Origin: an uncultured Candidatus Saccharibacteria bacterium
GTDB taxonomy: Bacteria; Patescibacteriota; Minisyncoccia; Sungbacterales; SURF-37
DNA length: 34,511 nucleotides
Assembly: GCA_964373475.1 (NCBI GenBank)
Contig: CAYJUX010000001.1
Span: 1-34,511 of the forward strand
Reading direction: 5' to 3'
Both the position numbers and the translations under genes were made by a program. Numbering within the stretch: position 1 is the first letter of the stretch; every line of letters starts with the position of its first letter. The notes under the pieces are model-generated. The model was given only the letters and a program-made list of their open reading frames with translations. It ran no database searches and was not told the origin of the DNA. Below, one piece after another: positions 1,267 to 20,940 of this stretch.

Positions 1267-1677
1267 ATGCCGACTATCAGCCAACTCATCAAGCACGGCC
1301 GCGAGCCGCGCCGTTACAAGCCCAAAGCGCCCGCGCTCCTCAAGGGTTTTAACCTTTTAAAAAATCGTCCGGTGGAGTACCCGTCGCCCTTTAAGCGCGG
1401 CGTCGCCATTAAGGTGACGACCGTAACGCCCAAAAAGCCGAACTCCGCCCTGCGCAAGGTGGCCCGGGTCCGCCTGACCAACGGCATGGAGGTCACGGCC
1501 TATATCCCCGGCGTCGGCCATAACCTGCAGGAGCACTCCATCGTGCTCATCCGCGGCGGCCGGGTAAAGGACCTCCCGGGCGTGCGCTATCACATCGTGC
1601 GGGGCGTGCTGGATACCGGGGGCGTAGTAGGCAGGAAGCAGCAGCGCTCAAAGTACGGAGCCAAACGCCCCAAATAA
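1267..1677 (+). CDS. rpsL: 30S ribosomal protein S12
   Basis: [12 protein letters not shown]...[18 protein letters not shown]...[18 protein letters not shown]; canonical S12. Confidence 0.97.
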
Positions 1678-1790
1678 ATCTCTAAATCCTAAACCCTAAT
1701 GTCTAAACAAATTCAAAACTCAAATCTCGAAACACTTTGACATTGGAGATTATTTAGAGATTAGAGATCCGAGATCAGAGATTTTCACAG
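1676..1790. repeat. Long imperfect hairpin, family E copy 1 (CCTAAACCCTAAT / TCTCTAAAT words)
   Basis: aaatctctaaatcctaaaccctaatgtctaaacaaat pairs with attatttagagattagagatccgagatcagagattt. Shares cctaaaccctaatNtctaaa and cgaaacac with 15021-15158. Confidence 0.7.
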
Positions 1791-1791
1791 T

Positions 1792-2259
1792 ATGCGGCGG
1801 AAGCGCAGCGTTGAGCGACAACTGGATCCCGATCCGCGCCACGGCAATACGCTGGTCACGAAGTTCGTGCATTACGTCATGCGCCAGGGCAAGAAGTCCA
1901 TAGCCGAGAAGGTCGTCTACGGCGCGTTTGCCATTGTCGCGCGGGAGACCGGCGAGGATCCGCTTATTGTTTTTCAGCGCGCCATTGCCAACGCCTCGCC
2001 GCTCCTGGAGATCAAGTCGCGGCGCATCGGCGGGGCCAACTACCAGGTGCCCCGCGAGGTGAATCCCAAACGCCGTACGGCGCTGGCATTCCGCTGGATC
2101 ATCGGCGCGGCCCGCGCCAAAACGGGCAAGCCCATGGCCTCAAAGCTGGCCGAGGAACTTACCTTGGCGGCCAAGAACGAGGGCATCGCCATCAAACGCA
2201 AGGCGGACATGCATCGGATGGCCGAGGCCAATAAGGCCTTTGCCCATTTCGCGTGGTGA
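1792..2259 (+). CDS. rpsG: 30S ribosomal protein S7
   Basis: 155 aa, MRRKR...LVTKFVHYVMRQGKKSIAEK...RRIGGANYQVP...AFAHFAW; canonical S7 at the syntenic position after rpsL. Confidence 0.95.
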   Translation: MRRKRSVERQLDPDPRHGNTLVTKFVHYVMRQGKKSIAEKVVYGAFAIVARETGEDPLIVFQRAIANASPLLEIKSRRIGGANYQVPREVNPKRRTALAFRWIIGAARAKTGKPMASKLAEELTLAAKNEGIAIKRKADMHRMAEANKAFAHFAW

Positions 2260-2299
2260 AATTGAGCCGCAGGCGAAGGTTTCCCAGTTGCGAAATGGA

Positions 2300-2452
2300 G
2301 CACCCCGCACGAATTTTACGCCTCTGAATGGGTTTAATATGGATAAGATTGAATATCAGAGAACATCTCGCGGCGCGCGTGGGCGAATAGCCCATCCCGC
2401 TTCGGGCGCAGCGCGTCGCCATGGTAGGGTTCGTAAAATTCGTGCTGGGGTC
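2300..2452. repeat. Structured palindromic element, family A copy 1 (MITE/REP-like, 153 nt)
   Basis: Terminal inverted repeat gcaccccgcacgaattttacg / cgtaaaattcgtgctggggt. The core gcgtgggcgaatagcccatcccgcttcgggcg is homologous to the copies at 7337-7487 and 14647-14798. Confidence 0.8.
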
Positions 2453-2472
2453 GCCCATTTTGCGCGGTAGTG

Positions 2473-2639
2473 TGCTTCGCATATCACGTTTTTCTCCACG
2501 CCTCTATTTTGAGAAAATCGCTTCGCGATTTTCAGCCAAAGGATCCCACCGCCCTTTTGCCCCCCGCAAAAGCCCTGGGCTGCCGACTGGCAGCCCGTCG
2601 CTCCGCGACCCCGATGGAGAAAAACGTGATATGCTTCGC
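2473..2639. repeat. Inverted-repeat element, family C, flanked by the direct 8-mer TGCTTCGC (TSD-like)
   Basis: 18-bp IR atatcacgtttttctcca (2481-2498) / tggagaaaaacgtgatat (2615-2632). The direct repeat tgcttcgc occurs at 2473-2480 and 2632-2639. Three internal perfect hairpins: gaaaatcgc-ttc-gcgattttc, cttttgc-ccccc-gcaaaag, gggctgcc-gac-tggcagccc. Confidence 0.7.
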
Positions 2640-2653
2640 TGATGATTAACGTA

Positions 2654-2800
2654 TGGAATTGAAGAGCGAGGAGAAAATAATCCAACTGATGACCGAGATG
2701 CGCGACATCATGCGTAAGCACGATCGCGGCGTGCGCCCCACGGTATTGATATTGCTTGTTCTACTGGCAGTGCTGGTTATTGTTACTTGGCTCAAATGAT
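2654..2800 (+). CDS. Possible 48-aa tail-anchored small membrane protein (speculative)
   Basis: ATG-started ORF MELKSEEKIIQLMTEMRDIMRKHDRGVRPTVLILLVLLAVLVIVTWLK with one C-terminal TM helix. No clear SD. Below the ORF-track length cutoff. Confidence 0.25.
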
Positions 2801-2849
2801 TTTTAATTTTGATCTGTCATTTTGATTTTTGCATTTTGCATTTTTATTT

Positions 2850-5024
2850 ATGCCCCGCGATTACCCCATTGAACGCACGCGCGATATCGGCATCATCGCG
2901 CACATAGACGCCGGCAAGACCACCGTCTCCGAGCGCATTTTGTTCTACACCGGCATTTCGCATAAGATCGGCGAGGTGCATGAGGGCACGACCGTCATGG
3001 ACTGGATGGAGCAGGAGCGGGAGCGGGGCATCACCATCACCGCCGCGGCGACCAACGTATTTTGGATGCCCACGTATCTCTATCCCGGCGGAAGCCCGCC
3101 TTTGCCGGAGGCCATGGCGGACGCTCAGTTTTCCAGTCAGATCAAGGATCTGAAGAAAGCCGGCGAGTACCGCATTAACATCATTGATACGCCGGGGCAC
3201 GTGGACTTTACGGTTGAGGTGGAGCGATCCCTGCGCGTGCTTGATGGCGGGGTGGTGGTGTTTGACGGCGTGGCCGGCGTGGAGCCGCAGTCCGAAACCG
3301 TGTGGCGCCAGGCCGACAAATATAAAGTTCCCCGCATCTGCTTCATTAATAAGCTGGACCGTACGGGCGCCTCATTTGATTTTTCCCTCCGTTCCATTCA
3401 GGAGCGGCTGACCCCCCATACGGCCGTCCTTACCGTTCCCATCGGGCTTGAATCCAATTTTGAAGGGGTCATTGAAGTGCTTTCCCGCGAGGCCGTCCGC
3501 TTTTCGGGTGCGCATGGCGAAGTGGTCAAGCGCGAGCCCGTTCCGGAGGAACTCCGGAAAACGGCCGACCAGTGGCATCGTCGCCTCGTAGAGCAGATAG
3601 CCGAGACCGATGACGCGCTGACGGAGCAGTATCTGAAAGGGGAGGAAATACCGGTCGAGACCCTGAAAACCGCCCTGCGGAAAGCCACGATTTCTGCGCG
3701 GCTGGTTCCCGTTCTCTGCGGTTCGGCCCTGAAAAATAAGGGCGTGCAGCTGGTGCTGGACGCGGTCATTGATTACCTGCCCTCGCCGGCTGATATGCCG
3801 CCGGTGAAAGGCATCAATCCGAAAACCGGTGCTGAGGAGGAACGACCGGCCAGCGACAACGCGCCCTTCGCGGCGCTGGCTTTCAAGCTCCAGACCGATC
3901 CTTTCGTCGGCCAGCTGACATTCTTCCGGGTGTATTCGGGCACGCTTGCGGCCGGTTCCTATGTGCTGAATTCGACGCGCTCCGAATCGGAGCGCATCGG
4001 CCGGATCCTCCGCATGCATGCCAATCACCGGGAGGAATTAAAGGAGATCCAAGCCGGGAATATCGGGGCCATCGTGGGCCTTAAAGGCACGCGCACCGGG
4101 GACACGCTCTCGGACCCGGAGCATCCCATTCTCCTGGAGGAGATCTCCTTCCCGGAGCCGGTCATGTCGCTGCGCATTGAGCCCAAGACCAAAGCCGACC
4201 AGGAAAAACTCGGCGTGGCCTTGCGGCGCCTGGCCGAAGAGGATCCGACATTCCATTTGAAGGGCGATCCGGAAACCGGGGAGACGATCATTTCGGGCAT
4301 GGGCGAGCTGCATTTGGAGATCATTGTGGACCGGATGAAGCGGGAATTTTCCGTGGAGGCCAACGTCGGCCGCCCCCAGGTGGCCTACAAGGAAACCGTT
4401 CGCGCCGCGGCCGAGGCCGAGGGCCGCTATATCCGCCAGTCCGGCGGCCGGGGACAGTACGGCCATGTATGGCTCCGCGTGGAGCCGGCCGAGCGCGGCC
4501 AGGGCTTTGAATTTTCAAACGAGATCCGGGGCGGCACCATTCCCCAGGAATTTATTCCGGCCGTGGAAAAAGGCGTCAAGGAAGCGCTCGATCGGGGGGT
4601 GCTGGCCGGGTTTCCGCTGGTGGATGTCATTGTGGCGCTCTATGACGGCTCGTACCATGAGGTGGATTCCTCGGAGGCGGCGTTCAAGATAGCCGGTTCC
4701 CTTGCCTTGCAGGAGGCCGCGCGCCGCGGCGGCCTGGCGCTCCTCGAACCCATTATGCGGGTAGAGGTGGTTACGCCCGAGCAGTTCTTGGGCGAGGTGA
4801 CCGGAGACCTTAACGCCAAGCGGGCGCGCATTGAGAGCATGGATGAGCGCGGCACCGGCATTAAGGTGATCTCCACCAAGGTTCCGCTGGCCGAAATGTT
4901 CGGCTACGCCACCACCGTGCGGTCGTTGACGCAGGGGCGGGCCAGCTTTACCATGGAGTTTGATCATTACGAGGAAGTCCCGGCCAATATCACCCAGGCC
5001 ATCGTCGAGGGAAGGGCTAAATAA
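2850..5024 (+). CDS. fusA: Elongation factor G
   Basis: [25 protein letters not shown]...[13 protein letters not shown]...NKLD; full-length EF-G. The ATG at 2850 is preferred over the TTG at 2829 used by the ORF track. Carries a ~31-aa G-domain insertion. Confidence 0.95.
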
Positions 5025-5070
5025 CGTACGGCGCAAAGGCGGCTAAAGGCCTCAACGGACACCCCGGCCA

Positions 5071-5098
5071 TTGAATTTTTACCCCCCTTTGCTATATT
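5071..5098 (+). promoter_or_regulatory. Sigma70-like promoter candidate TTGAAT-16 nt-TATATT
   Basis: ttgaat at 5071-5076 and tatatt at 5093-5098. The ATG at 5107 lies 8 nt after the -10, implying a leaderless or near-leaderless mRNA. Confidence 0.45.
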
Positions 5099-5106
5099 CC
5101 TAAAAT

Positions 5107-5412
5107 ATGTTCGACCAGCTAAAACCTATCATGCAGAACGGCGAGCGCTACATCGTCGTGGAAGGCGGCAGGCCGGAGTATGTACTGATGCGCTTTTCCG
5201 ATTATGCCCGCATCGCCGGTCATCGGGAAAGCACTGGCGTTAGAGGCGAATATGGACGCGCGCCGGGGCAAAACCCGGGCGAATGGGAGCGCGCCAATGC
5301 GGAACTGGAGGAAGTGCGCGCGACCGAGCCCGCGGCGCGCACGGCCGATTTTGGTACCGCCTTCCCCTCCGCCGACCCCACGACCATCCGCCTGGAAGAT
5401 CTCCCGCTCTAA
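5107..5412 (+). CDS. Small protein with a Phd/YefM-antitoxin-like N-terminal domain; no toxin partner present
   Basis: 101 aa. The N-terminus NGERYIVVEGGRPEYVLMRFSDYARI resembles the Phd/YefM beta-strand core. The C-terminal half is acidic and low-complexity and ends in EDLPL. Inserted between fusA and tuf. Confidence 0.5.
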   Translation: MFDQLKPIMQNGERYIVVEGGRPEYVLMRFSDYARIAGHRESTGVRGEYGRAPGQNPGEWERANAELEEVRATEPAARTADFGTAFPSADPTTIRLEDLPL

Positions 5413-5427
5413 ATGGCGGGCGGGGTA

Positions 5428-5456
5428 TTGACCGTTGGCCAGTGGCTTGCTAGGAT
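5428..5456 (+). promoter_or_regulatory. Promoter candidate TTGACC-17 nt-TAGGAT upstream of tuf
   Basis: ttgacc at 5428-5433 and taggat at 5451-5456, 64 nt upstream of the tuf ATG. Confidence 0.35.
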
Positions 5457-5519
5457 GAATTTTGTTGTCCTTGCGCCGGAAAGGGCGCACATTCATTAAC
5501 GCTTTTTTGTTTTATTGCT

Positions 5520-6713
<1,194 letters not shown>

Positions 6714-6725
6714 GGAAGTTTGCAG

Positions 6726-6747
6726 GCGCGCGGCTCGAGCCGCGCGC
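6726..6747. repeat. Perfect 22-nt GC palindrome / hairpin after tuf (processing or attenuation site?)
   Basis: gcgcgcggc-tcga-gccgcgcgc, not followed by a T-run. Confidence 0.5.
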
Positions 6748-6780
6748 TTCATGATCGGCACTGCTTGTTCTTTCCCCACT

Positions 6781-7113
6781 ATGGCGACCCCGAAGGAAGT
6801 TGAAGTGAAGCCCCGCATCCGGATCCGCGTCCGGGCCTACGACTCCAAGATCATTGACGCTTCGGTGCGTCAGATCGTGGATACCGCGCGCCGGCACGGC
6901 GCCGAGGTCATCGGGCCCGTGCCCCTGCCGACGGAGATAAAGAAGTACACGGTAAACCGTTCGTCCTTCGTGCATAAAGACGCGCGGGAGCAATATGAGA
7001 TGCGGGTGCATAAGCGCCTCATTGATATCGTGAGCCCGACGCCGAAGACCATTGACGCGCTGATGAACCTGACCTTGCCGGCCGGCGTGGATGTGGAGAT
7101 AAAGATGCAATAG
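6781..7113 (+). CDS. rpsJ: 30S ribosomal protein S10
   Basis: [51 protein letters not shown]. The ATG at 6781 gives a normal S10 length; the ORF-track start at 6751 is a spurious extension. Confidence 0.95.
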
Positions 7114-7132
7114 ATCGGTCGGTGGATAGTTG

Positions 7133-7172
7133 CCCCTCACCAGTTTCCCGTGCCAAAGAAACTGATGAGGGG
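7133..7172. repeat. Hairpin with family-B-like CCCCTCACC ends
   Basis: cccctcaccagtttc-(10 nt)-gaaactgatgagggg. The ends match the CCCTCACC termini of the elements inside rnpB. Confidence 0.6.
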
Positions 7173-7336
7173 GAGCGATCCGCATCGCTTCACTCGGTTG
7201 TATGGAATTCAATAGCCCCACTGGCTAGTCCAAATACGTAACCCCGTGTTGCTTTTAGGCGCCGGGCAACCGGCTTTTTCATTTGCCGGCCTGCGAGCGC
7301 AAGCCCGTGGCGCCGCGCGAGCAGCTGCCGCAAATG

Positions 7337-7487
7337 AACCCCGCACCAATTTTGCCGGCGCAAAGGGGGCAGCGTGGATGCGCCCTCGCGATCGGCAAAC
7401 TCATGCGAAGCGCGTGGCCGAATAGGCCGTCCCGTTATGGGCGAAGCGCTTCGCCGTGGCATACCTCGCAAAATTGGTGCCGGGGTT
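7337..7487. repeat. Structured palindromic element, family A copy 2 (151 nt)
   Basis: TIR aaccccgcaccaattttgc / gcaaaattggtgccggggtt. Core gcgaagcgcgtggccgaataggccgtcccgttatgggcgaagcgcttcgcc. Confidence 0.85.
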
Positions 7488-7503
7488 TGCTGCAAGAACA
7501 TCC

Positions 7504-8103: not shown

Positions 8104-8157
8104 GGTCTGCTTGATAGTTTATAAGTTTAAAAGTTTGTAAGTTTATAAGTTCGGGTG

Positions 8158-8230
8158 CTGATCCCGCATCTATATCAATGGTATATACCATTGATATAGA
8201 TGCGAGGGAGTACCTTCTCTGCGGGATCAG
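8158..8230. repeat. Nested palindrome: 38-nt perfect palindrome inside an 11-bp outer inverted repeat
   Basis: gcatctatatcaatggtatataccattgatatagatgc (8166-8203) is perfectly self-complementary. Outer arms are ctgatcccgca and tgcgggatcag. Flanked by AAGTTTRTA-type low-complexity words. Confidence 0.9.
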
Positions 8231-8271
8231 GAGTTAGGGAATAGGTTATAGGGATTTCGGGGCGTCCGAAT

Positions 8272-8302
8272 AAAAAAAACGCCATGACGTTTCGGGTCAT
8301 GG
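8272..8302 (-). terminator. Rho-independent terminator for the antisense gene 8297-8551
   Basis: Minus strand reads ccatgac-ccgaaac-gtcatgg followed by cg + T8. The stem overlaps the stop codon. Confidence 0.6.
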
Positions 8303-8551
8303 CGCCGCGCTGGCACGGCGCGTGCGGTCCTCCTGTCGCATAAGGAGTTCAAGTATGGTTGTTGCGCCGAGGACCGCTTCGGTGCCGAGGTGCCCCTCAA
8401 GACCGATGAGGAAAAGTTTCAGTGCTGGCGTTTCCTCGTCAATCACCGCATGGATCCGCCGTTGAAACCCCGAGGGATCCCTGGTGTACTCTGCGAACTG
8501 TAACAGGCAGAATTCATCAGTCAACTGAGAGAGTAGCTGGCGGGTGTGCAT
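8297..8551 (-). CDS. Hypothetical 84-aa protein encoded antisense to the S10 operon
   Basis: ATG start preceded by GAGGAG 5 nt upstream (rc of ctcctc at 8557-8562), with its own terminator. Predicted helical (MHTRQLLSQLTDEFCLLQFAEY...); no family recognised. Confidence 0.55.
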   Translation of the reverse strand: MHTRQLLSQLTDEFCLLQFAEYTRDPSGFQRRIHAVIDEETPALKLFLIGLEGHLGTEAVLGATTILELLMRQEDRTRRASAAP

Positions 8552-8604
8552 TTTTTCTCCTCAACGGTAACGCGTGCCAATTCGTACTGATACTAATAAT
8601 ACGG

Positions 8605-9661: not shown

Positions 9662-9665
9662 GCAT

Positions 9666-9750
9666 AATGCAAATCTACGAATGGTATGCGAATGCCGCGA
9701 ATCACCTATCGCTATTCGTAGCATTCGAATGCGATTTGTAGATTCGAATT
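9666..9750. repeat. Long imperfect hairpin filling the rplW-rplB spacer (family F)
   Basis: aatgcaaatctacgaatggtatgcgaatgc pairs with gcattcgaatgcgatttgtagattcgaatt. Confidence 0.75.
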
Positions 9751-9757
9751 ACATTCC

Positions 9758-10579: not shown

Positions 10580-10581
10580 CC

Positions 10582-11422: not shown

Positions 11423-11503
11423 TCAGTTTTGAGTTTAATGAGTCACGCTTCGCTACAGTTGTGTCAAATCGTAACCCATTAAACTGATTAAACTCATAAA
11501 CTC
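11423..11503. repeat. Imperfect hairpin filling the rplV-rpsC spacer (family G), centred on CGCTTCGC
   Basis: ttgagtttaatgag pairs with ctgattaaactcat; the central loop is agtcacgcttcgctacag. Confidence 0.65.
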
Positions 11504-11505
11504 AT

Positions 11506-12219
11506 ATGACTCATAGAGTGCACCCCTACGTATTCCGTCTCGGCCAGACCACGACCTGGAAGTCGCGCTGGTTCAGTGCCAAGCGCTTCCCGTCGTACCT
11601 GCGCGAGGACACACTCCTCCGGGAATGGCTGTGGCAGCGCCTCCGCGAGGCCCATGTTTCCTCCATTGAGATTGAGCGCTCGCCCAATGTCATGAACCTC
11701 ATCATTCGCACTTCCCGGCCCGGCATCCTGATCGGTCGCGGGGGCGAGGGCATTGAGCGACTCAAGAAGGACACGGTGAAGAAACTTTCATCATTCCAGA
11801 AAAAAGTCCGGCCCGGAGCGTCCCGGCGTATGCCGGCCGAGGAGCGCCGCGACCTGAAGCTCGTCATTGAAGAGGTACGCTCCCCGGAAACCGATGCCCG
11901 CATCGTGGCCGAGCAGATCCGGGACGACATTGAGAAGCGCATCCGTTTCCGGCGCATCCTCAGGCAGACGGTGGAGAAGGTGATGTCGCATAAGGAAGTG
12001 GAGGGCGTAAAGGTCATGCTCTCCGGCCGCCTGGACGGCGCGGAAATGTCGAGGACCGAGTGGTCCAAGAAAGGCCGCATCCCCCTGCAGACGCTCCGCG
12101 CGGCCATTGACTATGCTTTCACCGAGGCGCATACCACCTACGGCACCGTCGGCATAAAGGTGTGGATCTATAAGGGGGAAGTGTTTAAGGAGAGTGAGCA
12201 GGTTAAGCAAGTTAAGTAA
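11506..12219 (+). CDS. rpsC: 30S ribosomal protein S3
   Basis: MTHRVHPYVFRLGQTTTWKSRWF...; KH/S3 core. The last codons (QVKQVK-stop) lie inside repeat H1. Confidence 0.95.
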   Translation: MTHRVHPYVFRLGQTTTWKSRWFSAKRFPSYLREDTLLREWLWQRLREAHVSSIEIERSPNVMNLIIRTSRPGILIGRGGEGIERLKKDTVKKLSSFQKKVRPGASRRMPAEERRDLKLVIEEVRSPETDARIVAEQIRDDIEKRIRFRRILRQTVEKVMSHKEVEGVKVMLSGRLDGAEMSRTEWSKKGRIPLQTLRAAIDYAFTEAHTTYGTVGIKVWIYKGEVFKESEQVKQVK

Positions 12220-12267
12220 ATTAAGTGAATTAAGCTTAACTCGCTTAACTTGCTTAATTCACTTAAT
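12198..12267. repeat. Palindromic element, family H copy 1 (TTAAGCAAGTTAAG words), overlapping the rpsC 3' end
   Basis: gcaggttaagcaagttaagtaaattaagtgaattaagc + ttaactcgcttaacttgcttaattcacttaat. Both arms are identical to 21301-21396. Confidence 0.9.
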
Positions 12268-12278
12268 CAGCTCAAGTT

Positions 12279-13534: not shown

Positions 13535-13537
13535 ACC

Positions 13538-13640
13538 TTTACGGATTACCGATGTGTACGGATATACCGATTCGAATTCGAATGGCCGGATACTCGTACG
13601 ATTTCCATCCGTATATCCGTATTGTTCCGTAATCCGTAAA
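13538..13640. repeat. Long imperfect inverted repeat, family D copy 2
   Basis: tttacggattaccgatgtgtacggatataccgattcgaat pairs with ...ccatccgtatatccgtattgttccgtaatccgtaaa. Same words as 247-374. Confidence 0.85.
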
Positions 13641-13645
13641 CCCCC

Positions 13646-13957: not shown

Positions 13958-13964
13958 TATGAAT

Positions 13965-14076
13965 CCCGTTGGGGACCGCGGTCGCGTATACGTATTTTGG
14001 AAATTAACCATGGAAAGCCAATTATCAGCAATTTATAGTAGCCGGGCGCGGCACGACCGCGACCTGTCTCTAACGG
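13965..14076. repeat. Long-range inverted repeat filling the rplX-rplE spacer (family I)
   Basis: cccgttggggaccgcggtcg pairs with cgaccgcgacctgtctctaacggg across a ~65-nt AT-rich loop. Confidence 0.6.
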
Positions 14077-14077
14077 G

Positions 14078-14641: not shown

Positions 14642-14646
14642 CTATG

Positions 14647-14798
14647 GCACCCCGCACCAATTTTGCAACCAGTTCTCTCGCGAACCGCTTCGCCCATCGC
14701 GGGATGGCCTATTCGGCCACGCAGTTCGCGAGCATATCCGAAGTTATTACCACTCTGTGCACATGGCGAAAAAACAGCGCAAAATTGGAGCGAGGTGC
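14647..14798. repeat. Structured palindromic element, family A copy 3 (152 nt, inverted relative to copies 1 and 2)
   Basis: TIR gcaccccgcaccaattttgc / gcaaaattggagcgaggtgc. The core ctcgcgaaccgcttcgcccatcgcgggatggcctattcggccacgcagttcgcgag is the rc of the copy-2 core. Confidence 0.85.
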
Positions 14799-14799
14799 T

Positions 14800-14838
14800 C
14801 ATGTTTCTAGTCAGTCGCTTCGCTCCTGAAGAAACATG
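14800..14838 (+). promoter_or_regulatory. Hairpin sequestering the rpsN start codon
   Basis: catgtttct-(21 nt containing cgcttcgc)-agaaacatg. The 3' arm contains the ATG at 14836-14838. Confidence 0.45.
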
Positions 14839-15021
14839 GCAAAGAAATCCGTCATTGCGCGCGCGCTCCGCCCCCCGAAGTTCAAATCCCGGGTGGTACG
14901 CCGTTGCTTTCGCTGCGGCCGGAAACGCGGATATCTAGGCGCGTTTGATCTTTGCCGCATCTGCTTTCGGGAGCTGGCCAATAAGGGCGAAATACCCGGC
15001 ATCCGGAAGTCATCCTGGTAA
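14836..15021 (+). CDS. rpsN: 30S ribosomal protein S14, short zinc-binding type (type Z)
   Basis: 61 aa, [61 protein letters not shown]. Confidence 0.94.
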
Positions 15022-15158
15022 AACCCTAAGCCCTAAACCCTAATCTCTAAATAAGTCCCAATGACCAAAGTCCAAATGACCGAAACACGTTCCGTTGAAT
15101 TTCGAACATTAGGATTTTGGATTTGTTTAGGGTTTAGAAATTAGGATTTAGGATTTTC
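15021..15158. repeat. Long imperfect hairpin, family E copy 2
   Basis: aaaccctaagccctaaaccctaatctctaaataag... pairs with ...ggatttgtttagggtttagaaattaggatttaggatttt. Central motif cgaaacacg. Confidence 0.75.
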
Positions 15159-15162
15159 GACC

Positions 15163-15549
15163 ATGGACCCCATCGCTGACATGTTCGTCCGTATCGTGAA
15201 CGGATATCGCGCCAAAAAAGAGGTAGTGATTTTTCCGCATTCGCGGCTGAAAGGGGAGCTGGCTAATATCCTGCAGGCAAAAGGCCTCATTGCCGGCGTG
15301 GAGAAAAAAGGCAAGAAGGTCCGCAAATTCCTTGAAGTAACGCTTTCCTACTCCCATGCCGCAGCGGCGCTTTCCGGGTTCCGCCGGGTTTCCAAACCCT
15401 CACGGCGGCTCTATACCCCGGCCAAGGCCATCCGCCCGGTCCGCGGGGGCCTCGGGACGCTTATCCTTTCCACCTCGCGGGGTCTCATGACCGGGGAGGA
15501 CGCAAGGAAAATCGGCATTGGCGGCGAGCCAATGGTAGAGGTATGGTAA
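15163..15549 (+). CDS. rpsH: 30S ribosomal protein S8
   Basis: MDPIADMFVRIVNGYRAKKEVVIFPHSRLKGELANILQAKGLI...; canonical S8. Confidence 0.95.
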   Translation: MDPIADMFVRIVNGYRAKKEVVIFPHSRLKGELANILQAKGLIAGVEKKGKKVRKFLEVTLSYSHAAAALSGFRRVSKPSRRLYTPAKAIRPVRGGLGTLILSTSRGLMTGEDARKIGIGGEPMVEVW

Positions 15550-15550
15550 A

Positions 15551-15643
15551 AAATAAAATAGTAAATATTAAAAATAAAAATTTTGGAAGTCGCCGGAGGC
15601 GACTTCAAATATTTTACTTTTTTCTTTTTACTTTTTAATTTTA
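15551..15643. repeat. AT-rich long hairpin with a GC clamp (family J)
   Basis: Central ggaagtcgcc-gga-ggcgacttc, flanked by complementary A/T-rich arms (aaaataaaatagtaaatatt... / ...aaatattttacttttttcttttta). Confidence 0.7.
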
Positions 15644-15646
15644 TAT

Positions 15647-16192
15647 ATGTCCCGTATCGGTAAACAACCCATTGCACTCCCCGAAGGGGTCAGCGTCGCC
15701 GAAGCCGGAGGCACGGTAACGGTCACCGGCCCCAAAGGAACGCTTTCCCTTATCCTCCGTCCGGAGGTGGGGTTATCTTTTGAGGGAAAGAGCGTATGCG
15801 TGCTGCCGGTGCGGGCGACCAGAAAAACTCCCGCCTACTGGGGCCTCACCCGTTCGCTCCTCGCCCGGATGGTGGAAGGGGTAAGCCGGGGATTTCAACG
15901 CAAGCTCGAGATCGAGGGCATTGGATACCGCGCCGCGTTGGAGGGCGCGTCCTTAGCGCTCGCGCTCGGGTTCTCCCATCCGGTGCGCGTGGCGGCGCCG
16001 GAGGGTATCGCGTTCAGCGTGGAAAAAAACGTTATTACCGTCTCCGGCATTGATCCGGTATTGGTGGGGGATGTTGCCGCCGGCATTCGCCGGCTCCGCC
16101 CGCCCGAGCCCTATAAGGGCAAAGGCATCCGCTATGCCGGCGAGATCATCCGGCGAAAATCCGGCAAGAAGGCCGTAAGCACGGGCGGCTAG
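15647..16192 (+). CDS. rplF: 50S ribosomal protein L6
   Basis: MSRIGKQPIALPEGVSV...GPKGTLS...; canonical L6. Confidence 0.95.
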   Translation: MSRIGKQPIALPEGVSVAEAGGTVTVTGPKGTLSLILRPEVGLSFEGKSVCVLPVRATRKTPAYWGLTRSLLARMVEGVSRGFQRKLEIEGIGYRAALEGASLALALGFSHPVRVAAPEGIAFSVEKNVITVSGIDPVLVGDVAAGIRRLRPPEPYKGKGIRYAGEIIRRKSGKKAVSTGG

Positions 16193-16199
16193 CCCTTCC

Positions 16200-16571
16200 A
16201 TGACCAGCGCACTCAAACAAACTCGTATCCAACAGCGAAGGCGCGCCCGGCGCGTGCGGGCGCGCATTCGGGGTACGGCCGAACGGCCGCGGCTGTCAGT
16301 ATTCCGTTCCCATCGGCATATCAGCGCCCAGCTCATTGATGATGCGGCGGGCCGTACGATGGTTGCCGCTTCGGATGGAAGGAAAAAAAGCGTAAGATCA
16401 AGATCAAGGATGACCCCGACGGCGCGGGCGAGCCAGGTGGGCGAGGAGCTGGCTCATGCCGCCACAGCCAAGGGGATCGGCTACGCCCGCTTTGATCGGG
16501 GCCGCTATCGCTACCATGGTATTGTCCGCGCACTGGCCGCAGGCGCACGAAAGGGCGGGTTGAAATTTTAG
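16200..16571 (+). CDS. rplR: 50S ribosomal protein L18
   Basis: ...RRVRARIRGTAERPRLSVFRSHRHISAQLIDD...RGRYRYHGIVRALAAGARKGGLKF. Confidence 0.93.
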   Translation: MTSALKQTRIQQRRRARRVRARIRGTAERPRLSVFRSHRHISAQLIDDAAGRTMVAASDGRKKSVRSRSRMTPTARASQVGEELAHAATAKGIGYARFDRGRYRYHGIVRALAAGARKGGLKF

Positions 16572-16577
16572 TAACGC

Positions 16578-16683
16578 GACACTAATACACGAATGAGCAC
16601 GAATAACACCAATCGTTCTACTCAAAGATGTAGTTCCTGGGCCTTCGTATTTGTGACATTCGTGAAATTTGTGTATTAGTGTC
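16578..16683. repeat. Long imperfect hairpin (family K) overlapping the rpsE upstream region
   Basis: gacactaatacac (16578-16590) pairs perfectly with gtgtattagtgtc (16671-16683). The arms continue through cacgaatg... Confidence 0.8.
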
Positions 16684-16690
16684 CTTGTTC

Positions 16691-17170
16691 ATGCCACGAC
16701 GAGAGCGAATGAGAGGGGGAGAGCGGGAGCGTTCTGAATTTGACCAGAAGCTTCTGGATGTCCGGCGCGTCGCCCGCGTGGTTGCCGGGGGGCGGCGCTT
16801 TAGTTTCCGCGTGACCGTGGTCATCGGGAACCGGAAGGGAAAGGTGGCCGTGGCCGTGGCCAAGGGAGCCGACGTTTCCAGCGCCATTGAGAAAGCCGTC
16901 AGCCGCGCCAAAAAGCATCTCTTCGTCGTGCCGATCACGCCCTGGGGTTCGATCGGGCACGAGGTACGCGCGAAATACGGCGCGGCGCGCGTGCTCATCC
17001 GCCCGCGGCCGGCCGGGTCGGGCATCGTGGCCGGCGGTTCGGTGCGGGCCGTGGCTGAACTTGCGGGCATTACCAATATCTCCTCCAAGATCCTCTCGCG
17101 TACCACGAATAAGCTGACCAATGCCATGGCCACGCTGGAAGCACTCAAGCAACTTAAAACGAGAATCTAG
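16691..17170 (+). CDS. rpsE: 30S ribosomal protein S5
   Basis: MPRRERMRGGERERSEFDQKLLDVRRVARVVAGGRRFSFRVTVVIGNRKGKVAVAVAKG...; the ATG at 16691 is preferred to the GTG at 16679. Confidence 0.92.
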   Translation: MPRRERMRGGERERSEFDQKLLDVRRVARVVAGGRRFSFRVTVVIGNRKGKVAVAVAKGADVSSAIEKAVSRAKKHLFVVPITPWGSIGHEVRAKYGAARVLIRPRPAGSGIVAGGSVRAVAELAGITNISSKILSRTTNKLTNAMATLEALKQLKTRI

Positions 17171-17261
17171 AATATAGAATTTAGAATCTAGAATCGCCCG
17201 AATAACTACTATCATTACCGATGTCCCAAATTCTAGATTCTAGCTTCTAGATTCTAAATTC
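17166..17261. repeat. Long hairpin (family L, TCTAGAAT words) occupying the position where rpmD (L30) normally lies
   Basis: gaatttagaatctagaatc (17177-17195) pairs with gattctagcttctagattctaaattc (17237-17261). The left arm overlaps the rpsE stop. Confidence 0.85.
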
Positions 17262-17271
17262 CATTCTTGTT

Positions 17272-17703
17272 ATGCAGATCCATCAGCTAAAATCGAATAC
17301 CGCATGGCGGCGGAAACGCCGCGTGGGGCGCGGCGGCAAGCGCGGCACGACCTCGGGCCGCGGCACGAAAGGCCAGAAAGCCCGCGCCGGCGCCAAGATC
17401 CGCCCGGCCATCCGCGATATTATGAAGAAATTCCCCAAGCTGCGGGGATATCGTTTTCATTCTTTTCGCCCCAAGCCGGTCATCATTGATCTCGGGCGGA
17501 TCGCAGCCCATTTTCCTTCGGGCGCAACCGTTGACCCGGCCGCATTGCTCCAAGCCGGCCTCATCCATAAGATGAAGGGCAGGACCCCGGCCCTGAAAGT
17601 ACTCGGCTCGGGCGCCATAAAGAAAAAGTTCCACCTCCGCGGCGTCGCGCTCTCCGCTTCCGCGCGCGCGCGGGTCGAGGAGGCCGGGGGTATGATCGGC
17701 TGA
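17272..17703 (+). CDS. rplO: 50S ribosomal protein L15
   Basis: MQIHQLKSNTAWRRKRRVGRGGKRGTTSGRGTKGQKARAG...; canonical L15. Confidence 0.93.
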   Translation: MQIHQLKSNTAWRRKRRVGRGGKRGTTSGRGTKGQKARAGAKIRPAIRDIMKKFPKLRGYRFHSFRPKPVIIDLGRIAAHFPSGATVDPAALLQAGLIHKMKGRTPALKVLGSGAIKKKFHLRGVALSASARARVEEAGGMIG

Positions 17704-17713
17704 CCCCATTCTC

Positions 17714-18979
17714 ATGCTTGAGCAACTTCTTTTTATCTGGAAGCTTCCTGATCTGCGGAAGAAAATATTTTTTGTCCTGGCCATTCTCGGCATATTCCGG
17801 CTGATCGCGGCCATTCCCGTCCCGGGCGCCGACCCGGTGCGATTGAAGGAGTTTCTGGCCGGGAACCAGTTCTTCGGCCTCCTGAACATTTTTTCCGGGG
17901 GGGTGCTGGAGAATCTCTCCATTGTCATGCTCGGCGTTGGGCCCTATATCACGGCCTCCATCATCATGCAGCTCCTGACTATGATCTTCCCCCGCCTGAA
18001 GGAAATGTATCAGGAGGAGGGCGAAGCCGGCCGGCAGCGTTTTAACCAGTATTCGCGTCTGCTGACCGTGCCCTTGGGCCTGCTGCAGGCCTATGGCCTG
18101 CTCATCATTCTCGTCCGCCAGCAGATCCTCCCGCCCCTTTCGCTTTTTGAATATCTGACCAGCATGATCACGGTGACCGCCGGGACGGTATTCCTCATGT
18201 GGCTCGGCGAGCTTATTTCTGAGAAAAATATCGGCAACGGCATCTCGCTTTTGATCTTCGCCGGCATCGTGTCGCGCCTGCCGGTGGATTTCCGTCAGAT
18301 ACTCCTGACCTTTGATCCCTCCCAGATCCCGGCCTACCTGGCGTTCATCGTGGTCAGCCTCATCGTCATTACGGGCGTGGTCATCATTACCGAGGGCCAG
18401 CGGAACATTCCGGTATCCTATGCCAAGCGTATCCGCGGCAACCGCGTATTCGGCGGCGTCCAGACGCACCTGCCGCTCCGCGTCAACCAGGCCGGCGTCA
18501 TCCCCATCATCTTTGCCATTTCCATCATTCTCTTCCCGGGGCTTATCGGGAATTTCCTGGCGACCGTACCCAATGCCGCCCTGCAGGCGGTATCGCAGTT
18601 TTTGATCACGCTTTTGAATAACCAGTGGCTCTACGGCACCCTCTATTTCCTCCTCGTGTTCGTCTTCACGTATTTTTACACCGCGGTGACCTTTGATCCC
18701 CAGGCTATTGCCCTGAACATCCAGAAGCAAGGCGGGTTCATCCTGGGCATGCGCCCGGGCCGGCCCACGGCCCAATTCCTGCAGTACATCCTGCATCGCA
18801 TTACGCTCTTCGGGGCGCTGTTCCTCGGCGCCATTGCCGTCCTCCCGCTCGCTGTCCAGGCCGGATTTGGCATCTCGGCCCTAACGCTCGGCGGGACATC
18901 CCTCCTCATCGTGGTTTCCGTGGTGCTGGAAACCCTGAAGCAGGTCCAGGCCCAGGTGGTGATGCACGAATATGAATAG
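17714..18979 (+). CDS. secY: Preprotein translocase subunit SecY
   Basis: 421 aa, 10-TM pattern, ...LGVGPYITASIIMQLL...NQAGVIPIIFA...; syntenic after rplO. Confidence 0.96.
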   Translation: MLEQLLFIWKLPDLRKKIFFVLAILGIFRLIAAIPVPGADPVRLKEFLAGNQFFGLLNIFSGGVLENLSIVMLGVGPYITASIIMQLLTMIFPRLKEMYQEEGEAGRQRFNQYSRLLTVPLGLLQAYGLLIILVRQQILPPLSLFEYLTSMITVTAGTVFLMWLGELISEKNIGNGISLLIFAGIVSRLPVDFRQILLTFDPSQIPAYLAFIVVSLIVITGVVIITEGQRNIPVSYAKRIRGNRVFGGVQTHLPLRVNQAGVIPIIFAISIILFPGLIGNFLATVPNAALQAVSQFLITLLNNQWLYGTLYFLLVFVFTYFYTAVTFDPQAIALNIQKQGGFILGMRPGRPTAQFLQYILHRITLFGALFLGAIAVLPLAVQAGFGISALTLGGTSLLIVVSVVLETLKQVQAQVVMHEYE

Positions 18980-19565
18980 CCAGCGGCGGGCTTCTTCTGG
19001 GCGCACGTTCGTTTTCCTCGGCCTTTCGGGTTCGGGCAAAGGCACGCAGGCAGCGCATCTCCTCCGGGTTCTCCCGAGGAGCATGAACATCAGCACCGGA
19101 GCCGCGTTCCGCCGCATGGCCGGGCGCCGGAACCTGACCGGCCGCTACATCCGGAATATTCTCCGGCGGGGGGCGCTCGTGCCCTATTGGGCGCCGATAT
19201 ACGTGTGGCTGGATGCATTCTTCCGGCGCATGGCCGGGGACGAGCATGTGGTTTTCGACGGCGCTCCGCGCCGGGTGGAGGAGGCGCAGGTGATGGACGA
19301 TTTCATGCGCGATGTCGGCCGACCGCTGCCGGTCGCGATTTACCTCCGGCTTCCCGAGACTCGAGCGCGGAAGCGGCTTCTCGGACGCGGACGGGCCGAT
19401 GATCGTTCTTCGGCCATAGCCGGCCGCTTCCGCTTTTTTCGTGAGCATGTGTTGTCGGTCATCGGCTACTATCGCCGCCGCGGCCGCCTCATCACCATTA
19501 ACGGCGATCAGCCCATCCCAGCGGTGTGGCGGGATATTAAACGGGCGCTCGGCATTCGGAGATAG
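18972..19565 (+). CDS. adk: Adenylate kinase-like nucleoside monophosphate kinase (short, divergent)
   Basis: P-loop FLGLSGSGKGTQ; syntenic position after secY with an 8-nt overlap. No long LID insertion is visible. Confidence 0.75.
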   Translation: MNSQRRASSGRTFVFLGLSGSGKGTQAAHLLRVLPRSMNISTGAAFRRMAGRRNLTGRYIRNILRRGALVPYWAPIYVWLDAFFRRMAGDEHVVFDGAPRRVEEAQVMDDFMRDVGRPLPVAIYLRLPETRARKRLLGRGRADDRSSAIAGRFRFFREHVLSVIGYYRRRGRLITINGDQPIPAVWRDIKRALGIRR

Positions 19566-19566
19566 C

Positions 19567-20031
19567 ATGCCCCACATTCACGAACTTATTGATTTTGTCG
19601 TGAACGCCTATATCGTCCATAACGGTCGCGTGCTTTTGGTTGACCATCGCGAGCATGGCATGTGGCTGCAGCCCGGAGGGCACGTGGAACTGGACGAGGA
19701 TACGGATCAGGCGTTATGGCGGGAAATTGAAGAAGAAACAGGGTTAACCCCTAATCAGCTCGAAATCTTTTCTGAAAAAGTTGATTTTAACGCGGGAACG
19801 GCTGTCGCACTGTGGCCACCGCGGTGGATGAATATCCATCGCGTCAACGATCGACACCGGCATATTGGACTCAACTATCTCCTCCGCGCGAAATCTGATA
19901 CGGTTCGTCTTGCAGAACGTGAACACCGCGATATCCGATGGTTTTCCGACCGTGAATTTGATCTGCCAGCGTTCAATATTCCGTTCGATGTGCGTTTGTA
20001 TGCCAAAGAAGCAATTCGCCTCGTAGCATGA
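19567..20031 (+). CDS. NUDIX hydrolase
   Basis: MPHIHELIDFVVNAYIVHNGRVLLVDH... with the NUDIX box GGHVELDEDTDQALWREIEEETGL. The ATG at 19567 is preferred over the ORF-track start at 19441. Confidence 0.85.
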   Translation: MPHIHELIDFVVNAYIVHNGRVLLVDHREHGMWLQPGGHVELDEDTDQALWREIEEETGLTPNQLEIFSEKVDFNAGTAVALWPPRWMNIHRVNDRHRHIGLNYLLRAKSDTVRLAEREHRDIRWFSDREFDLPAFNIPFDVRLYAKEAIRLVA

Positions 20032-20843
20032 TCATCGCGAACGACGGCGAGCTCGCCACGATCCGGGGATGTGGAACGCGCCTGGCACGCATTGTAGCAG
20101 AACTCGTTGCCGCGGTGAGCCCCGGCATTTCGACGAGCGAACTTGACCGCCTCGCGGAGCAGCTGATTTATAGGCAGGGCGGATTTCCGGTATTCAAGGG
20201 CTACCGCTCCCATAAGGGCGAGCGGCCGTTCCCGGCGAGCATCTGCACCTCGCTCAATGAGGAAGTGGTGCACGGTATCCCGAGCCCTAAACGAATATTG
20301 AAGGACGGCGATATTATCGGCATTGATATCGGCATGCGCTGGCCGTCACAGGATCAAAAATCAAAAATAAAAAATAAAAGCGATGGAGCTGAAGTGGGGT
20401 TGATCACGGATATGGCTCTGACGGTTCCGGTCGGCGAGGTTTCTCCGCTTACCCGTCGGCTGCTGGATACGACCCAAGGGGCGCTGGCAGCGGGCATCCG
20501 CGTTCTCAGGCCCGGTATGCGTCTCGGCGGTCTGGGGCGCGTTATTCAGGAGGCCATCGAATCGGATGGATTTTCCGTGGTGAGAGACCTGGTCGGGCAT
20601 GGGGTTGGGAAGAAACTGCATGAAGAGCCCTATGTTCCTAATTACGGGGATCCCGGGGAAGGAGAGTTTATTCGCGAAGGGATGGTGCTGGCCCTTGAAC
20701 CCATGGCCGCGAGCGGCAGTGCCGCGGTGGAACTGGCCCCAGACGGCTGGACTTGGCGCACGGCCGATGGCTCGCTGGCCGCGCATTTTGAACATACGGT
20801 GGTGGTAACAAAGGGGGGAGCGGAGATACTCACGAAGTTATGA
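20028..20843 (+). CDS. map: Methionine aminopeptidase type I, with an internal low-complexity insertion
   Basis: ...CTSLNEEVVHGIP...GDIIGIDIG...GHGVGKKLHEEP...LALEPM...HFEHTVVVT; pita-bread metal ligands recognisable. ATGA overlap with the NUDIX gene. Confidence 0.92.
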   Translation: MIIANDGELATIRGCGTRLARIVAELVAAVSPGISTSELDRLAEQLIYRQGGFPVFKGYRSHKGERPFPASICTSLNEEVVHGIPSPKRILKDGDIIGIDIGMRWPSQDQKSKIKNKSDGAEVGLITDMALTVPVGEVSPLTRRLLDTTQGALAAGIRVLRPGMRLGGLGRVIQEAIESDGFSVVRDLVGHGVGKKLHEEPYVPNYGDPGEGEFIREGMVLALEPMAASGSAAVELAPDGWTWRTADGSLAAHFEHTVVVTKGGAEILTKL

Positions 20844-20940
20844 AATTACAAATCACAAGCACCAAAATACAAATAAGCACCAAATCCCAAGCACTAAATC
20901 CCAATCACTTTGTAATTTGGAATTTGTGATTTGGAATTTT
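20843..20940. repeat. Long imperfect hairpin (family M, AAATCACAA words)
   Basis: aaattacaaatcacaa pairs 15/16 with ttgtgatttggaattt. Low-complexity CA-rich loop. Confidence 0.75.

Follow-up and report, generated by a model that had tools for sequence, protein, structure and literature searches.

The stretch of DNA considered here, called the window, is the 34,511 nt of contig CAYJUX010000001.1 (assembly GCA_964373475.1) from an uncultured Candidatus Saccharibacteria bacterium, and our view of this organism's own genome is these 34.5 kb. On re-annotation of the genes, a str/S10/spc cluster was found on the + strand, running from S12 (1267) to Map (20843) with L30 missing. The order is S12, S7, EF-G, a 101-aa open reading frame (ORF), EF-Tu, S10, L3, L4, L23, L2, S19, L22, S3, L16, L29, S17, L14, L24, L5, S14, S8, L6, L18, S5, L15, SecY, Adk, a NUDIX protein and Map, followed by RuvX/YqgF, a GT2 glycosyltransferase (GT), a GalT-like gene and Tpi. 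The subject of this analysis is the spacers between these genes, many of which are long AT-rich hairpins with arms built from short repeated words.

The nearest loci in a species-level genome collection are from Patescibacteria metagenome-assembled genomes (MAGs), several of them labelled 'Saccharibacteria' by the submitters and one a Portnoybacteria MAG. No record matched the S8 protein in an exact-sequence look-up. The same genes were located in 22 related loci and each junction was tabulated; loci are identified below by L numbers, and ORF calls in the flanks of metagenome loci are crude. Folding of each spacer was compared, using RNAfold, with 200 dinucleotide shuffles of that spacer.

Hairpin-forming spacers

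Spacer lengths are bimodal, at most 10 nt (or overlapping) or at least 59 nt. Eleven spacers between S12 and the glycosyltransferase gene, and the region 244-376, each fold as one long imperfect hairpin. These, and the two genes that flank the first of them, are as follows.

34-243, - strand: rpmB (PF00830)
244-376: TACGGAT-family hairpin, filling the gap between the start codons of the divergent rpmB and M50 genes; z -4.1 on the + strand, -3.8 on the - strand
377-1021, + strand: M50 protease gene, named from its HExxH start and not by family search
1675-1790: CCTAAAC-family hairpin, S12-S7 (spacer 1678-1791, z -2.3, GC 0.34)
9662-9757: CGAATG-family hairpin, L23-L2 (z -4.6)
11423-11505: GAGTTTAA-family hairpin, L22-S3 (z -2.6)
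12197-12272: TTAAGC-family hairpin, S3-L16 (spacer 12220-12278, z -5.75)
13538-13640: TACGGAT-family hairpin, L14-L24 (spacer 13535-13645, z -5.2; 34-nt arms, 82% complementary)
15019-15158: CCTAAAC-family hairpin, S14-S8 (spacer 15022-15162, z -5.0)
15547-15645: A-run/T-run hairpin, S8-L6 (spacer 15550-15646, z -4.2, GC 0.22; 48-nt arms)
16578-16683: ACACGAAT-family hairpin, L18-S5 (spacer 16572-16690, z -4.6)
17160-17264: TCTAGAAT-family hairpin, S5-L15 (spacer 17171-17271, z -8.1; 32-nt arms, 88% complementary)
20843-20939: AAATCACAA/AAGCAC-family hairpin, Map-YqgF (spacer 20844-20944, z -3.9)
21300-21401: second TTAAGC-family hairpin, YqgF-GT (spacer 21323-21403, z -7.4)

The original prediction, made from the sequence alone, was that the spacers are long imperfect AT-rich hairpins and that they would fold better than shuffled controls. 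Both parts are borne out for this set, which has a GC content of 0.22-0.43, compared with ~0.59 in the coding DNA of the window, and z-scores of -2.3 to -8.1. For 46 coding segments of 105 nt used as controls the median z was 0.04, with 4% of the segments under -2. Arm length is 17-48 nt and the arms are 77-96% complementary. The stems begin no more than a few nt from the upstream stop codon, in some cases within the last codons, and the distance from stem end to downstream ATG is mostly 0-7 nt (15 nt at YqgF-GT). None of the 25 inverted-repeat pairs listed falls inside an annotated gene, except within its last or first few codons.

Some hairpins extend into the upstream gene. The left arm of the S3-L16 hairpin encodes the last codons and the stop of S3 (..QVKQVK-stop), and the YqgF-GT copy of the same family, the centre of which is 24 nt longer, encodes a QVKQVK-stop tail for YqgF/RuvX. 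The two proteins share this tail because both TTAAGC copies overwrite the end of the gene upstream. At S5-L15, the TAG stop codon of S5 sits within a repeated word of the TCTAGAAT-family hairpin.

It had also been claimed that nearly every spacer is of this kind. Between the M50 gene and tpi there are 21 spacers of at least 20 nt, and the description holds for 11 of them. Two contain GC-rich inverted-repeat elements, four (M50-S12, S7-EF-G, S10-L3 and L3-L4) are stretches or composites of 245-590 nt, and GalT-Tpi is 121 nt, GC-rich and has a z-score of -2.7. The remaining three, all around EF-Tu, are not significantly structured (EF-G-orf101, z +0.4; orf101-EF-Tu, -0.8; EF-Tu-S10, -1.5; orf101 being the 101-aa ORF). 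L24-L5 (13965-14076) had been counted among the AT-rich word hairpins, and it does form a hairpin (z -2.65), but it has a GC content of 0.52 and no repeated words, and belongs to another class. The hairpin at 244-376 had been taken as part of the operon and in fact separates two divergent genes, with a start codon at either end.

When the window was scanned in full with Rfam (E<=1), no spacer matched a family, r-protein leaders included; the only matches were RNase P, one tRNA and two chance matches. ORFs inside the composite spacers of 390-590 nt gave no Pfam family. Among the AT-rich word hairpins, a short GC-rich stem followed by a U-run, as in an intrinsic terminator, was found only in the core of the S8-L6 hairpin (15586-15606), where 9 bp of GC-rich stem are terminator-like on both strands and look like a two-way intrinsic terminator. 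The other AT-rich stems are long, lack a U-run and are not terminator-like; the terminator search gave two weak matches in the GC-rich L5-S14 element.

Turnover, dispersal and the PF05635 cassette

The closest relative is L001, with r-proteins 77-98% identical to those of the window, and seven junctions that are long in the window are short or overlapping there. L23-L2 is 96 nt in the window and 5, 1 and 8 nt in L001, L004 and L005, respectively; L22-S3 is 83 nt and -4 nt in L001, with an ATGA overlap in L001, L002 and L004; S3-L16 is 59 nt and, in L001, 2 nt with a different S3 C-terminus; and L14-L24 is 111 nt, with 7 nt in L001 and an overlap in L002. The same is seen for L24-L5 (120 nt, 1 nt in L001), L5-S14 (194 nt and 2 nt) and L18-S5 (119 nt and 4 nt). 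GT-GalT is the reverse case, with 120 nt in L001 and 1 nt in the window. S8-L6 is 5 nt in L002 and 4 nt in L004, and in L001 it is an unrelated 70 nt. At junctions that are long in both the window and L001 (S5-L15, which is 156 nt in L001, Map-YqgF, YqgF-GT and S8-L6) the sequences are unrelated.

More widely, L004, L009 and L017 have nearly the same operon with spacers of a few nt almost throughout, and in compact relatives the junctions concerned are ATGA overlaps or gaps of 1-10 nt. Long spacers are numerous in L003, L005, L007, L011 and L018 and lie at other junctions. The long spacers of relatives, too, are mostly hairpins: the 150 spacers from the window and its relatives have a median z of -2.5, and 43% are below -3. 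Thus a hairpin in the spacer is a lineage-wide property and any single hairpin is short-lived. In the comparison of sister genomes, which had been suggested as a check on whether folding is kept as sequence turns over, spacers form hairpins across the lineage and their sequences turn over, but the hairpins of individual junctions are not conserved. R-protein autoregulatory leaders are expected at the same position and with the same structure across related genomes, and this is not what was found. Because presence or absence differs among close relatives, and long junctions that are shared carry unrelated sequence, the hairpins are not a conserved architecture of the operon. An operon-wide device setting r-protein stoichiometry, as had been proposed, is not supported, given the compact operons of L004, L009 and L017.

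The word families are dispersed. Three are present twice in the window, namely TTAAGC (S3-L16 and YqgF-GT), TACGGAT (244-376 and L14-L24) and CCTAAAC (S12-S7 and S14-S8). The two TTAAGC copies share arm segments of 40 nt and 34 nt that are 100% identical (the arm comparison of 12197-12272 with 21300-21401 is listed at 100% and 95%). The S12-S7 hairpin is a diverged CCTAAAC copy with right-arm words AGAGATT, is 72% identical to 15019-15076 and has arm matches in 21 loci. The CGAATG family of L23-L2 recurs at S14-S8 in L121 and at L23-L2 and L5-S14 in L002, and the Map-YqgF family recurs at L14-L24 of L003, with arm matches also in L012, L083, L195 and L200. The L18-S5 family (ACACGAAT) matches S8-L6 of L008, and TCTAGAAT words occur in a related form at L24-L5 of L007, the Portnoybacteria MAG. 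The words of L22-S3 look similar, by eye, to those at YqgF-GT of L005; BLAST of this family against the other loci gave no match. L002 has three copies of a AATCATGA family, two of which create the protein tail NQES-stop.

The CCTAAAC family was the one for which metagenomes were scanned. A degenerate 23-nt pattern for the right arm matched at least 120 metagenome contigs; four of the 80 loci examined were chance matches to TTTAGGG telomere-like arrays, and at least 116 contigs carry the arm. They come from many sample types and environments and range in GC from 0.27 to 0.59, and the 23-nt arm is almost invariant among them. Most have one and the same element, AAATCCTAAGCACTAAATCCTAAAC-AAAT..centre..-GTTTAGGATTTAGAAATTAGGATTTAGGATTT, typically 100-135 nt long, with a conserved asymmetry in which AAGCAC on one arm pairs with AGAAATT on the other. 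It is found beside start codons and beside stop codons, whichever strand the gene is on, and the neighbouring genes may be co-directional, divergent or convergent; it occurs in both orientations and was seen at unrelated genes (leuC-leuD, groES-groEL, beside tRNA genes and elsewhere). Solo-arm and inverted doublet forms both occur, and three further complete miniature copies were found in predicted viral contigs (IMG/VR). The suggestion that the hairpins are selfish DNA is supported by this distribution, in at least 116 contigs in all orientations and contexts, together with the families found at unrelated junctions and the variable presence among relatives.

About 20 loci appeared to have the right arm only. 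In several of these, the left arm lies ~450 nt upstream, with an ORF between the arms. Three of the arm-enclosed ORFs matched PF05635 (23S rRNA intervening-sequence protein) in Pfam with E values of 6e-11 to 1e-13, above the gathering score, and two matched TIGR02436 (four helix bundle protein) in NCBIfam with E values of 6e-17 and 3.6e-21. A hidden Markov model built from the PF05635 ORFs found eight such ORFs in the loci examined, the enclosed gene encoding ~120 aa. Both arms and an intact PF05635/TIGR02436 ORF are present in L104, L135, L100, L162 and, by look-up, L201; in L156 the ORF and right arm are present and the contig end cuts the cassette, and in L114 and L167 the ORF is disrupted. 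In L106, the arms on either side of a PF05635 ORF belong to another word family, TTTCCAT/ATGGAAA. At least 8000 entries of the protein collection are related to the cassette protein; among the matches listed, those closest to it that carry a name are from Phycisphaerae and Planctomycetota, and in one such genome the cassette lies between leuC and leuD.

The start of the cassette ORF lies within the left arm (..CAAATGACCGAAA..), and exactly that string is kept in the S14-S8 hairpin of the window, which retains the first 13 nt of the ORF (AAATGACCGAAACAC, at about 15075-15089). Its arms are 78% (left, over 49 nt) and 87% (right, over 55 nt) identical to those of the full-length cassette in L104. 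Since the arms align and the ORF start is kept, this 140-nt hairpin is an internally deleted PF05635 cassette. None of the window hairpins contains a PF05635/TIGR02436 ORF, and the family as it occurs here is a derivative of the cassette and not a full member, because the ORF is found only in the full-length relatives and the window copy keeps its start.

Clustering of 907 ORFs from 76 element-bearing loci showed that only the PF05635 family (5 loci) and housekeeping genes recur. No family of ORFs of at least 90 aa was present in more than 5 of the 76 loci, and no transposase was recognised among these clusters, which carry no Pfam annotation. No transposase is encoded in the window, and no Y1 transposase was found in the window or the loci examined. 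Target-site duplications were not seen for the AT-rich families, either by comparing filled with empty sites or in the flanks of ~15 complete CCTAAAC copies. In an alignment of 20 CCTAAAC copies, a weak one in that the repeated words blur the register and the right arm was preselected by the search pattern, RNAalifold gave no more than 14 pairs, and the covariation term was -0.01 kcal/mol.

Two candidate roles were rejected. The AGGA of the right arm might be a built-in Shine-Dalgarno sequence, or TAGGAT a leaderless -10 box, but as general roles these were set aside: ~40% of copies are reversed, so that this arm adjoins a stop codon, the gap to the ATG ranges between 2 and 20 nt, and in several cases an AGGAG belonging to the gene follows the element. 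The idea of integron attC sites was dropped because no RYYYAAC/GTTRRRY cores are seen by eye in the arms, and because the genes encode core r-proteins and keep their conserved order.

Further arrangements were noted in other loci. In L002 (13227-13396), L121 (about 6230-6330) and L138, a GC-rich insert with the motif TCATCCTGAGCG(A/T)AGCGAAGGATC is nested in CCTAAAC hairpins, which suggests another dispersed element that inserts into hairpin loops. In the Phycisphaerae loci L201 (3930-4410 and 5186-5510) and L197 (10213-11187), a small PDDEXK_3 (PF13366) gene and neighbours are flanked by CACGGAT arrays, direct or inverted, that resemble the TACGGAT family of the window and may represent a second type of cassette with word arms.

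GC-rich elements and other features

The window also contains the following GC-richer inverted-repeat elements.

13959-14077: GC-rich 119-nt inverted-repeat element (ATGAATCCCGTT..CTAACGGG), L24-L5 (z -2.65, GC 0.52)
14647-14798: GC-richer ~150-nt inverted-repeat element, termini CCCCGCACCAATTTTGC / GCAAAATTGG.., L5-S14
2303-2449: copy of the ~150-nt element within the 590-nt S7-EF-G spacer
7339-7484: copy of the ~150-nt element within the 390-nt S10-L3 spacer

The 119-nt element is a hairpin without repeated words, and differs in class from the AT-rich word hairpins. At L24-L5, L001 has the empty site TGA-T-ATGAGCC and the window has the filled site with ATGA on both sides; at GT-GalT, the same element is present in L001 (13461-13580) and the window is empty (TGA-T-ATGAAAA). 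The insertion is thus at TGAT^ATGA in both genomes, between a different pair of genes in each, and each genome is empty where the other is filled. No other insertion polymorphism seen is as clean, and the sites suggest that stop/start overlaps are targeted.

The three copies of the ~150-nt element share a conserved core (GCGTGGCCGAATAGGCCATCCCG..GGGCGAAGCG) with no Rfam match. The copy at 7339-7484 is in inverted orientation and 91% identical to the L5-S14 copy over 43 nt. A 61-aa ORF (14644-14829) called in L5-S14 is probably spurious. In L132, a metagenome locus, termini like those of the ~150-nt element enclose an AT-rich CCTAAAC hairpin.

An element related to the GC-richer ones of the operon spacers lies within the RNase P RNA gene (27842-28377, - strand), which is 536 nt long compared with the 367 positions of the model and scores 79 bits against an Rfam gathering threshold of 100. 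Here, a 110-nt insertion (28211-28313) at a helix tip, in place of ~13 model positions, is an inverted-repeat element (CCCCTCACCGATTTTACA..TGTAAAATCGGTGAGGGG). There is a second insertion of 78 nt, and a sister element lies just upstream (28381-28518). The GalT-Tpi spacer (23169-23289), an ATGA overlap in L001, opens with a sequence that repeats nt 1-26 of tpi in diverged form (ATGAAGCCCCTCATTGTTGCCAATTG, compared with ATGAAACCTCTTATCATCGCCAATTGG), and it seems from the sequence that an insertion landed inside the tpi start and duplicated it. The 501-nt L3-L4 spacer (8104-8604) includes a perfect 40-nt palindrome (8165-8204), 91% conserved in L001, and an antisense ORF of 84 aa (8551-8297) that has no Pfam match; after this ORF comes a hairpin (8306-8278) that is strongly terminator-like on the - strand.

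A few other features of the window were noted. From 20945 onward, the usual infA-rpmJ-rpsM-rpsK-rpsD-rpoA-rplQ genes are absent after map and ruvX, the glycosyltransferase gene, the galT-like gene and tpi are in their place, an order common to L001, L002 and L005. The 101-aa ORF (5107-5412) between fusA and tuf belongs to no Pfam family and is found in the same place in L005 (51% identity). A 300-nt direct repeat (32650-32949 and 33448-33747, 100% identical) lies inside two adjacent paralogous ORFs on the - strand, of 254 and 259 aa, neither of which has a Pfam match. Repeated tRNA-like pieces (29379-29602, - strand) adjoin tRNA-Gly(CCC) at 29478-29548; they include the T-arm-like CGGGGATCGAACC at 29379 and 29428 and a repeat resembling a 5' half at 29569-29602, and were not called as tRNAs by ARAGORN or Rfam.

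Nature of the elements

The CCTAAAC family is like the intervening sequences (IVS) of 23S rRNA genes, known from Leptospira, Coxiella, Brucella, Xanthomonas and the rRNA genes of candidate phyla radiation (CPR) bacteria. Both have a long stem formed by terminal inverted repeats, tandem heptameric arm words, a PF05635 ORF in the loop of full-length copies, decay of that ORF, and a patchy cross-phylum spread that suggests horizontal transfer. The IVS of Coxiella is a selfish element with a 28-bp terminal stem, tandem heptamers (GACAGAT x3) in one arm, the number of which differs between strains, and a decaying ORF of the PF05635 family (S23p) in the loop; it is excised from 23S rRNA by RNase III, and IVS 'functionality and origin ... 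remain unclear' (PMC4990558). In a survey of CPR rRNA genes, 23S_rRNA_IVP ORFs were found in 16S and 23S insertions, along with many short non-intron insertions without an ORF at known IVS sites (PMC11270868). However, IVS sit in rRNA helices 25/45, whereas all window copies are between protein genes, in operon spacers or between divergent genes, and none is in a 23S or 16S rRNA helix. The window copies also have no ORF, are 59-140 nt long and belong to many coexisting families, and RNase III excision is known for the IVS.

We consider it likely that the spacers hold a mixture of small non-coding palindromic insertion elements at stop/start junctions, and that the CCTAAAC family at least is an internally deleted cassette of the IVS type. 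The other word families have the same anatomy and turnover as the CCTAAAC family, and from this likeness we infer that they are the same kind of element. The original prediction could assign the hairpins to no described class of element; this no longer holds for the CCTAAAC family and stands for the others. No paper was found in the literature on these arm sequences, on intergenic hairpins or miniature inverted-repeat transposable elements (MITEs) of CPR/Patescibacteria, or on IVS-type hairpins in the mRNA spacers of CPR bacteria.

Such insertions could be tolerated in an essential operon if they fold on themselves. The stem would set the upstream stop codon beside the downstream start at its base, so that translational coupling would survive, and a ribosome-binding site, where the upstream gene carries one at its end, would likewise be kept near the start. 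Only self-folding inserts would then persist, as these restore the proximity of stop and start and do little harm, and inserts that do not fold would be purged. In the RNA, stems of 20-45 bp would be RNase III substrates, as rRNA IVS stems are, and could be trimmed, clipped out or cut so as to split the cistrons. Cleavage is plausible and has indirect support in the homology of the CCTAAAC family to cassettes of the IVS type, the stems of which are removed from 23S rRNA by RNase III (PMC4990558); by this analogy the stems are probably cut. The number of words would rise and fall by slippage, as in the strains of Coxiella.

Several observations weigh against this reading. The link to a cassette concerns one family and two (possibly three) hairpins in the window, and no PF05635 remnant was found in any other window spacer or in L001-L080. 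For the AT-rich elements no mobility enzyme, target-site duplication or defined target was found, and the label 'insertion element' consequently rests on distribution and not on mechanism. The arms are far more conserved than the protein, those of L104 and L100 being the same when the proteins are 40% identical, and it could be that they serve a host factor as a functional site, which would make them more than selfish DNA. Given this difference in conservation, and the lack of a transposase and of target duplication, the arms may be recognised by a conserved factor, which is perhaps the PF05635 protein itself. Finally, among 75 strongly folding spacers (window and 22 related loci) the sense strand folds better than the antisense strand in 47 and worse in 27 (p = 0.005), which hints at some selection at the RNA level; this bias is weak and the window itself shows the reverse trend.

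The elements could instead be ordinary MITEs or repetitive extragenic palindromic (REP) sequences or REPINs, that is, deletion derivatives of insertion sequences or REP doublets moved in trans by a DDE transposase or a Y1 transposase (RAYT, the REP-associated tyrosine transposase), with the PF05635 gene as a passenger. This we regard as unlikely. The elements are short, multicopy and patchily distributed, with terminal inverted repeats and, as for MITEs, a small non-coding size; the 119-nt GC-rich element, with its clean TGAT^ATGA insertion in two genomes, is the only one with ATGA on both sides; and, with 34.5 kb of the genome seen, a transposase may be encoded at a distance. However, the AT-rich families have no visible target-site duplication, no transposase was recognised in the window or among the ORFs of the 76 element-bearing loci, and the sole longer form found carries not a transposase gene but one for a four-helix-bundle protein. 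The Correia elements of Neisseria (CREE/NEMIS), ERIC/IRU, BOX and RUP are likewise imperfect intergenic palindromes of 100-150 nt that are co-transcribed and variable between strains, and the RNA hairpins of NEMIS reportedly are RNase III targets that alter mRNA stability (De Gregorio/Mazzone-type work). Correia elements differ in being a single family with a TA target duplication and plausible transposase ancestry, whereas here there are many families, no duplication and a longer form without a transposase. REPs are GC-rich with a GTAG head, are tied to RAYT and are the classical stabilisers of mRNA 3' ends. REP/BIME and REPIN-RAYT systems share with the window elements intergenic hairpin repeats inside operons and solo-arm and inverted doublet forms, but REPs are 20-40 nt and genome-specific, and the arms in the window are longer arrays of AT-rich words, with no RAYT seen in the window or loci.

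Quite unlikely, too, is that the hairpins are selected cis-regulatory RNAs (for processing, 3'-end stabilisation or translational coupling) that set the output of the r-protein cistrons, their sequence drifting and their structure being kept. The stems do run exactly from stop to start, the weak sense-strand excess in stability is in this direction, and the right arm of CCTAAAC elements ends in AGGA 4-12 nt before many start codons. S14-S8 is long in the window, L001 and L002, and in L001 the CCGAAA words of the left arm are matched by TTTCGG in the right arm. However, seven junctions are without a hairpin in close relatives and whole relatives are compact, the 244-376 hairpin is between divergent genes, and the same element is found in both orientations at unrelated genes such as leuC-leuD and groES-groEL and next to tRNA genes. 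Words, and not merely pairs, are conserved, covariation is negligible, and no Rfam r-protein leader was found.

Formation in place, by slippage that expands words beside a stop or start codon and template switching that copies them into an inverted arm, with nothing moving, agrees with tandem words of 7-9 nt that vary in number between copies, as the heptamers do between Coxiella strains (PMC4990558), and with the likeness of the L22-S3 words (AAACTCAT) to the start of S3 (ATGACTCAT), but is very improbable and for the CCTAAAC and TTAAGC families largely refuted, given 40-nt arms identical at two unrelated junctions, arms of 23-32 nt near-identical in more than 100 contigs of very different base composition, and defined boundaries with shared unique inner sequence that includes a gene start. 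Tandem intergenic heptamers with no known transfer mechanism are also known across phyla as the TAACTGA repeats of Beggiatoaceae, Cyanobacteria and Bacteroidetes (PMC4679880). These and the cyanobacterial short tandemly repeated repetitive (STRR) sequences are like the window words in being ~7 nt, tandem, directly upstream of start codons and sporadic across phyla, but are direct arrays without a complementary arm, whereas the window words form two inverted arms around a unique centre.

A bolder extension of the insertion-element reading is that IVS-type cassettes are one phylum-spanning mobile class, which inserts specifically at the helix tips of structural RNAs and at operon stop/start junctions and is moved by its own Avd-like four-helix-bundle protein. 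The intermediate might be RNA or hairpin DNA, and a reverse transcriptase or a host enzyme might act in trans. The miniatures in Patescibacteria would have been co-opted as 'punctuation' at which RNase III divides polycistronic r-protein mRNAs into units of one gene each. Avd binds nucleic acid and is the partner of the reverse transcriptase of diversity-generating retroelements; PF05635 resembles it (PMC10053308). No reverse transcriptase, template repeat or variable repeat is associated with the cassettes examined. We offer this extension tentatively, as unlikely in its entirety.

The origin and mobility of IVS have been open questions since about 1990. Here, arms with a PF05635 gene are found as a cassette at ordinary gene junctions in several phyla, decaying to hairpins of 60-140 nt, and in an essential operon, among 21 sizeable spacers, 11 are filled by hairpins of cassette-like architecture. 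This recasts the IVS from an rRNA curiosity to a general class of selfish element with abundant natural pairs of filled and empty sites. The hairpins create spurious ORFs and altered C-termini (QVKQVK-stop and NQES-stop), probably disrupt the assembly of CPR genomes and the calling of their genes, and need to be masked before these genomes are searched for regulatory RNAs.

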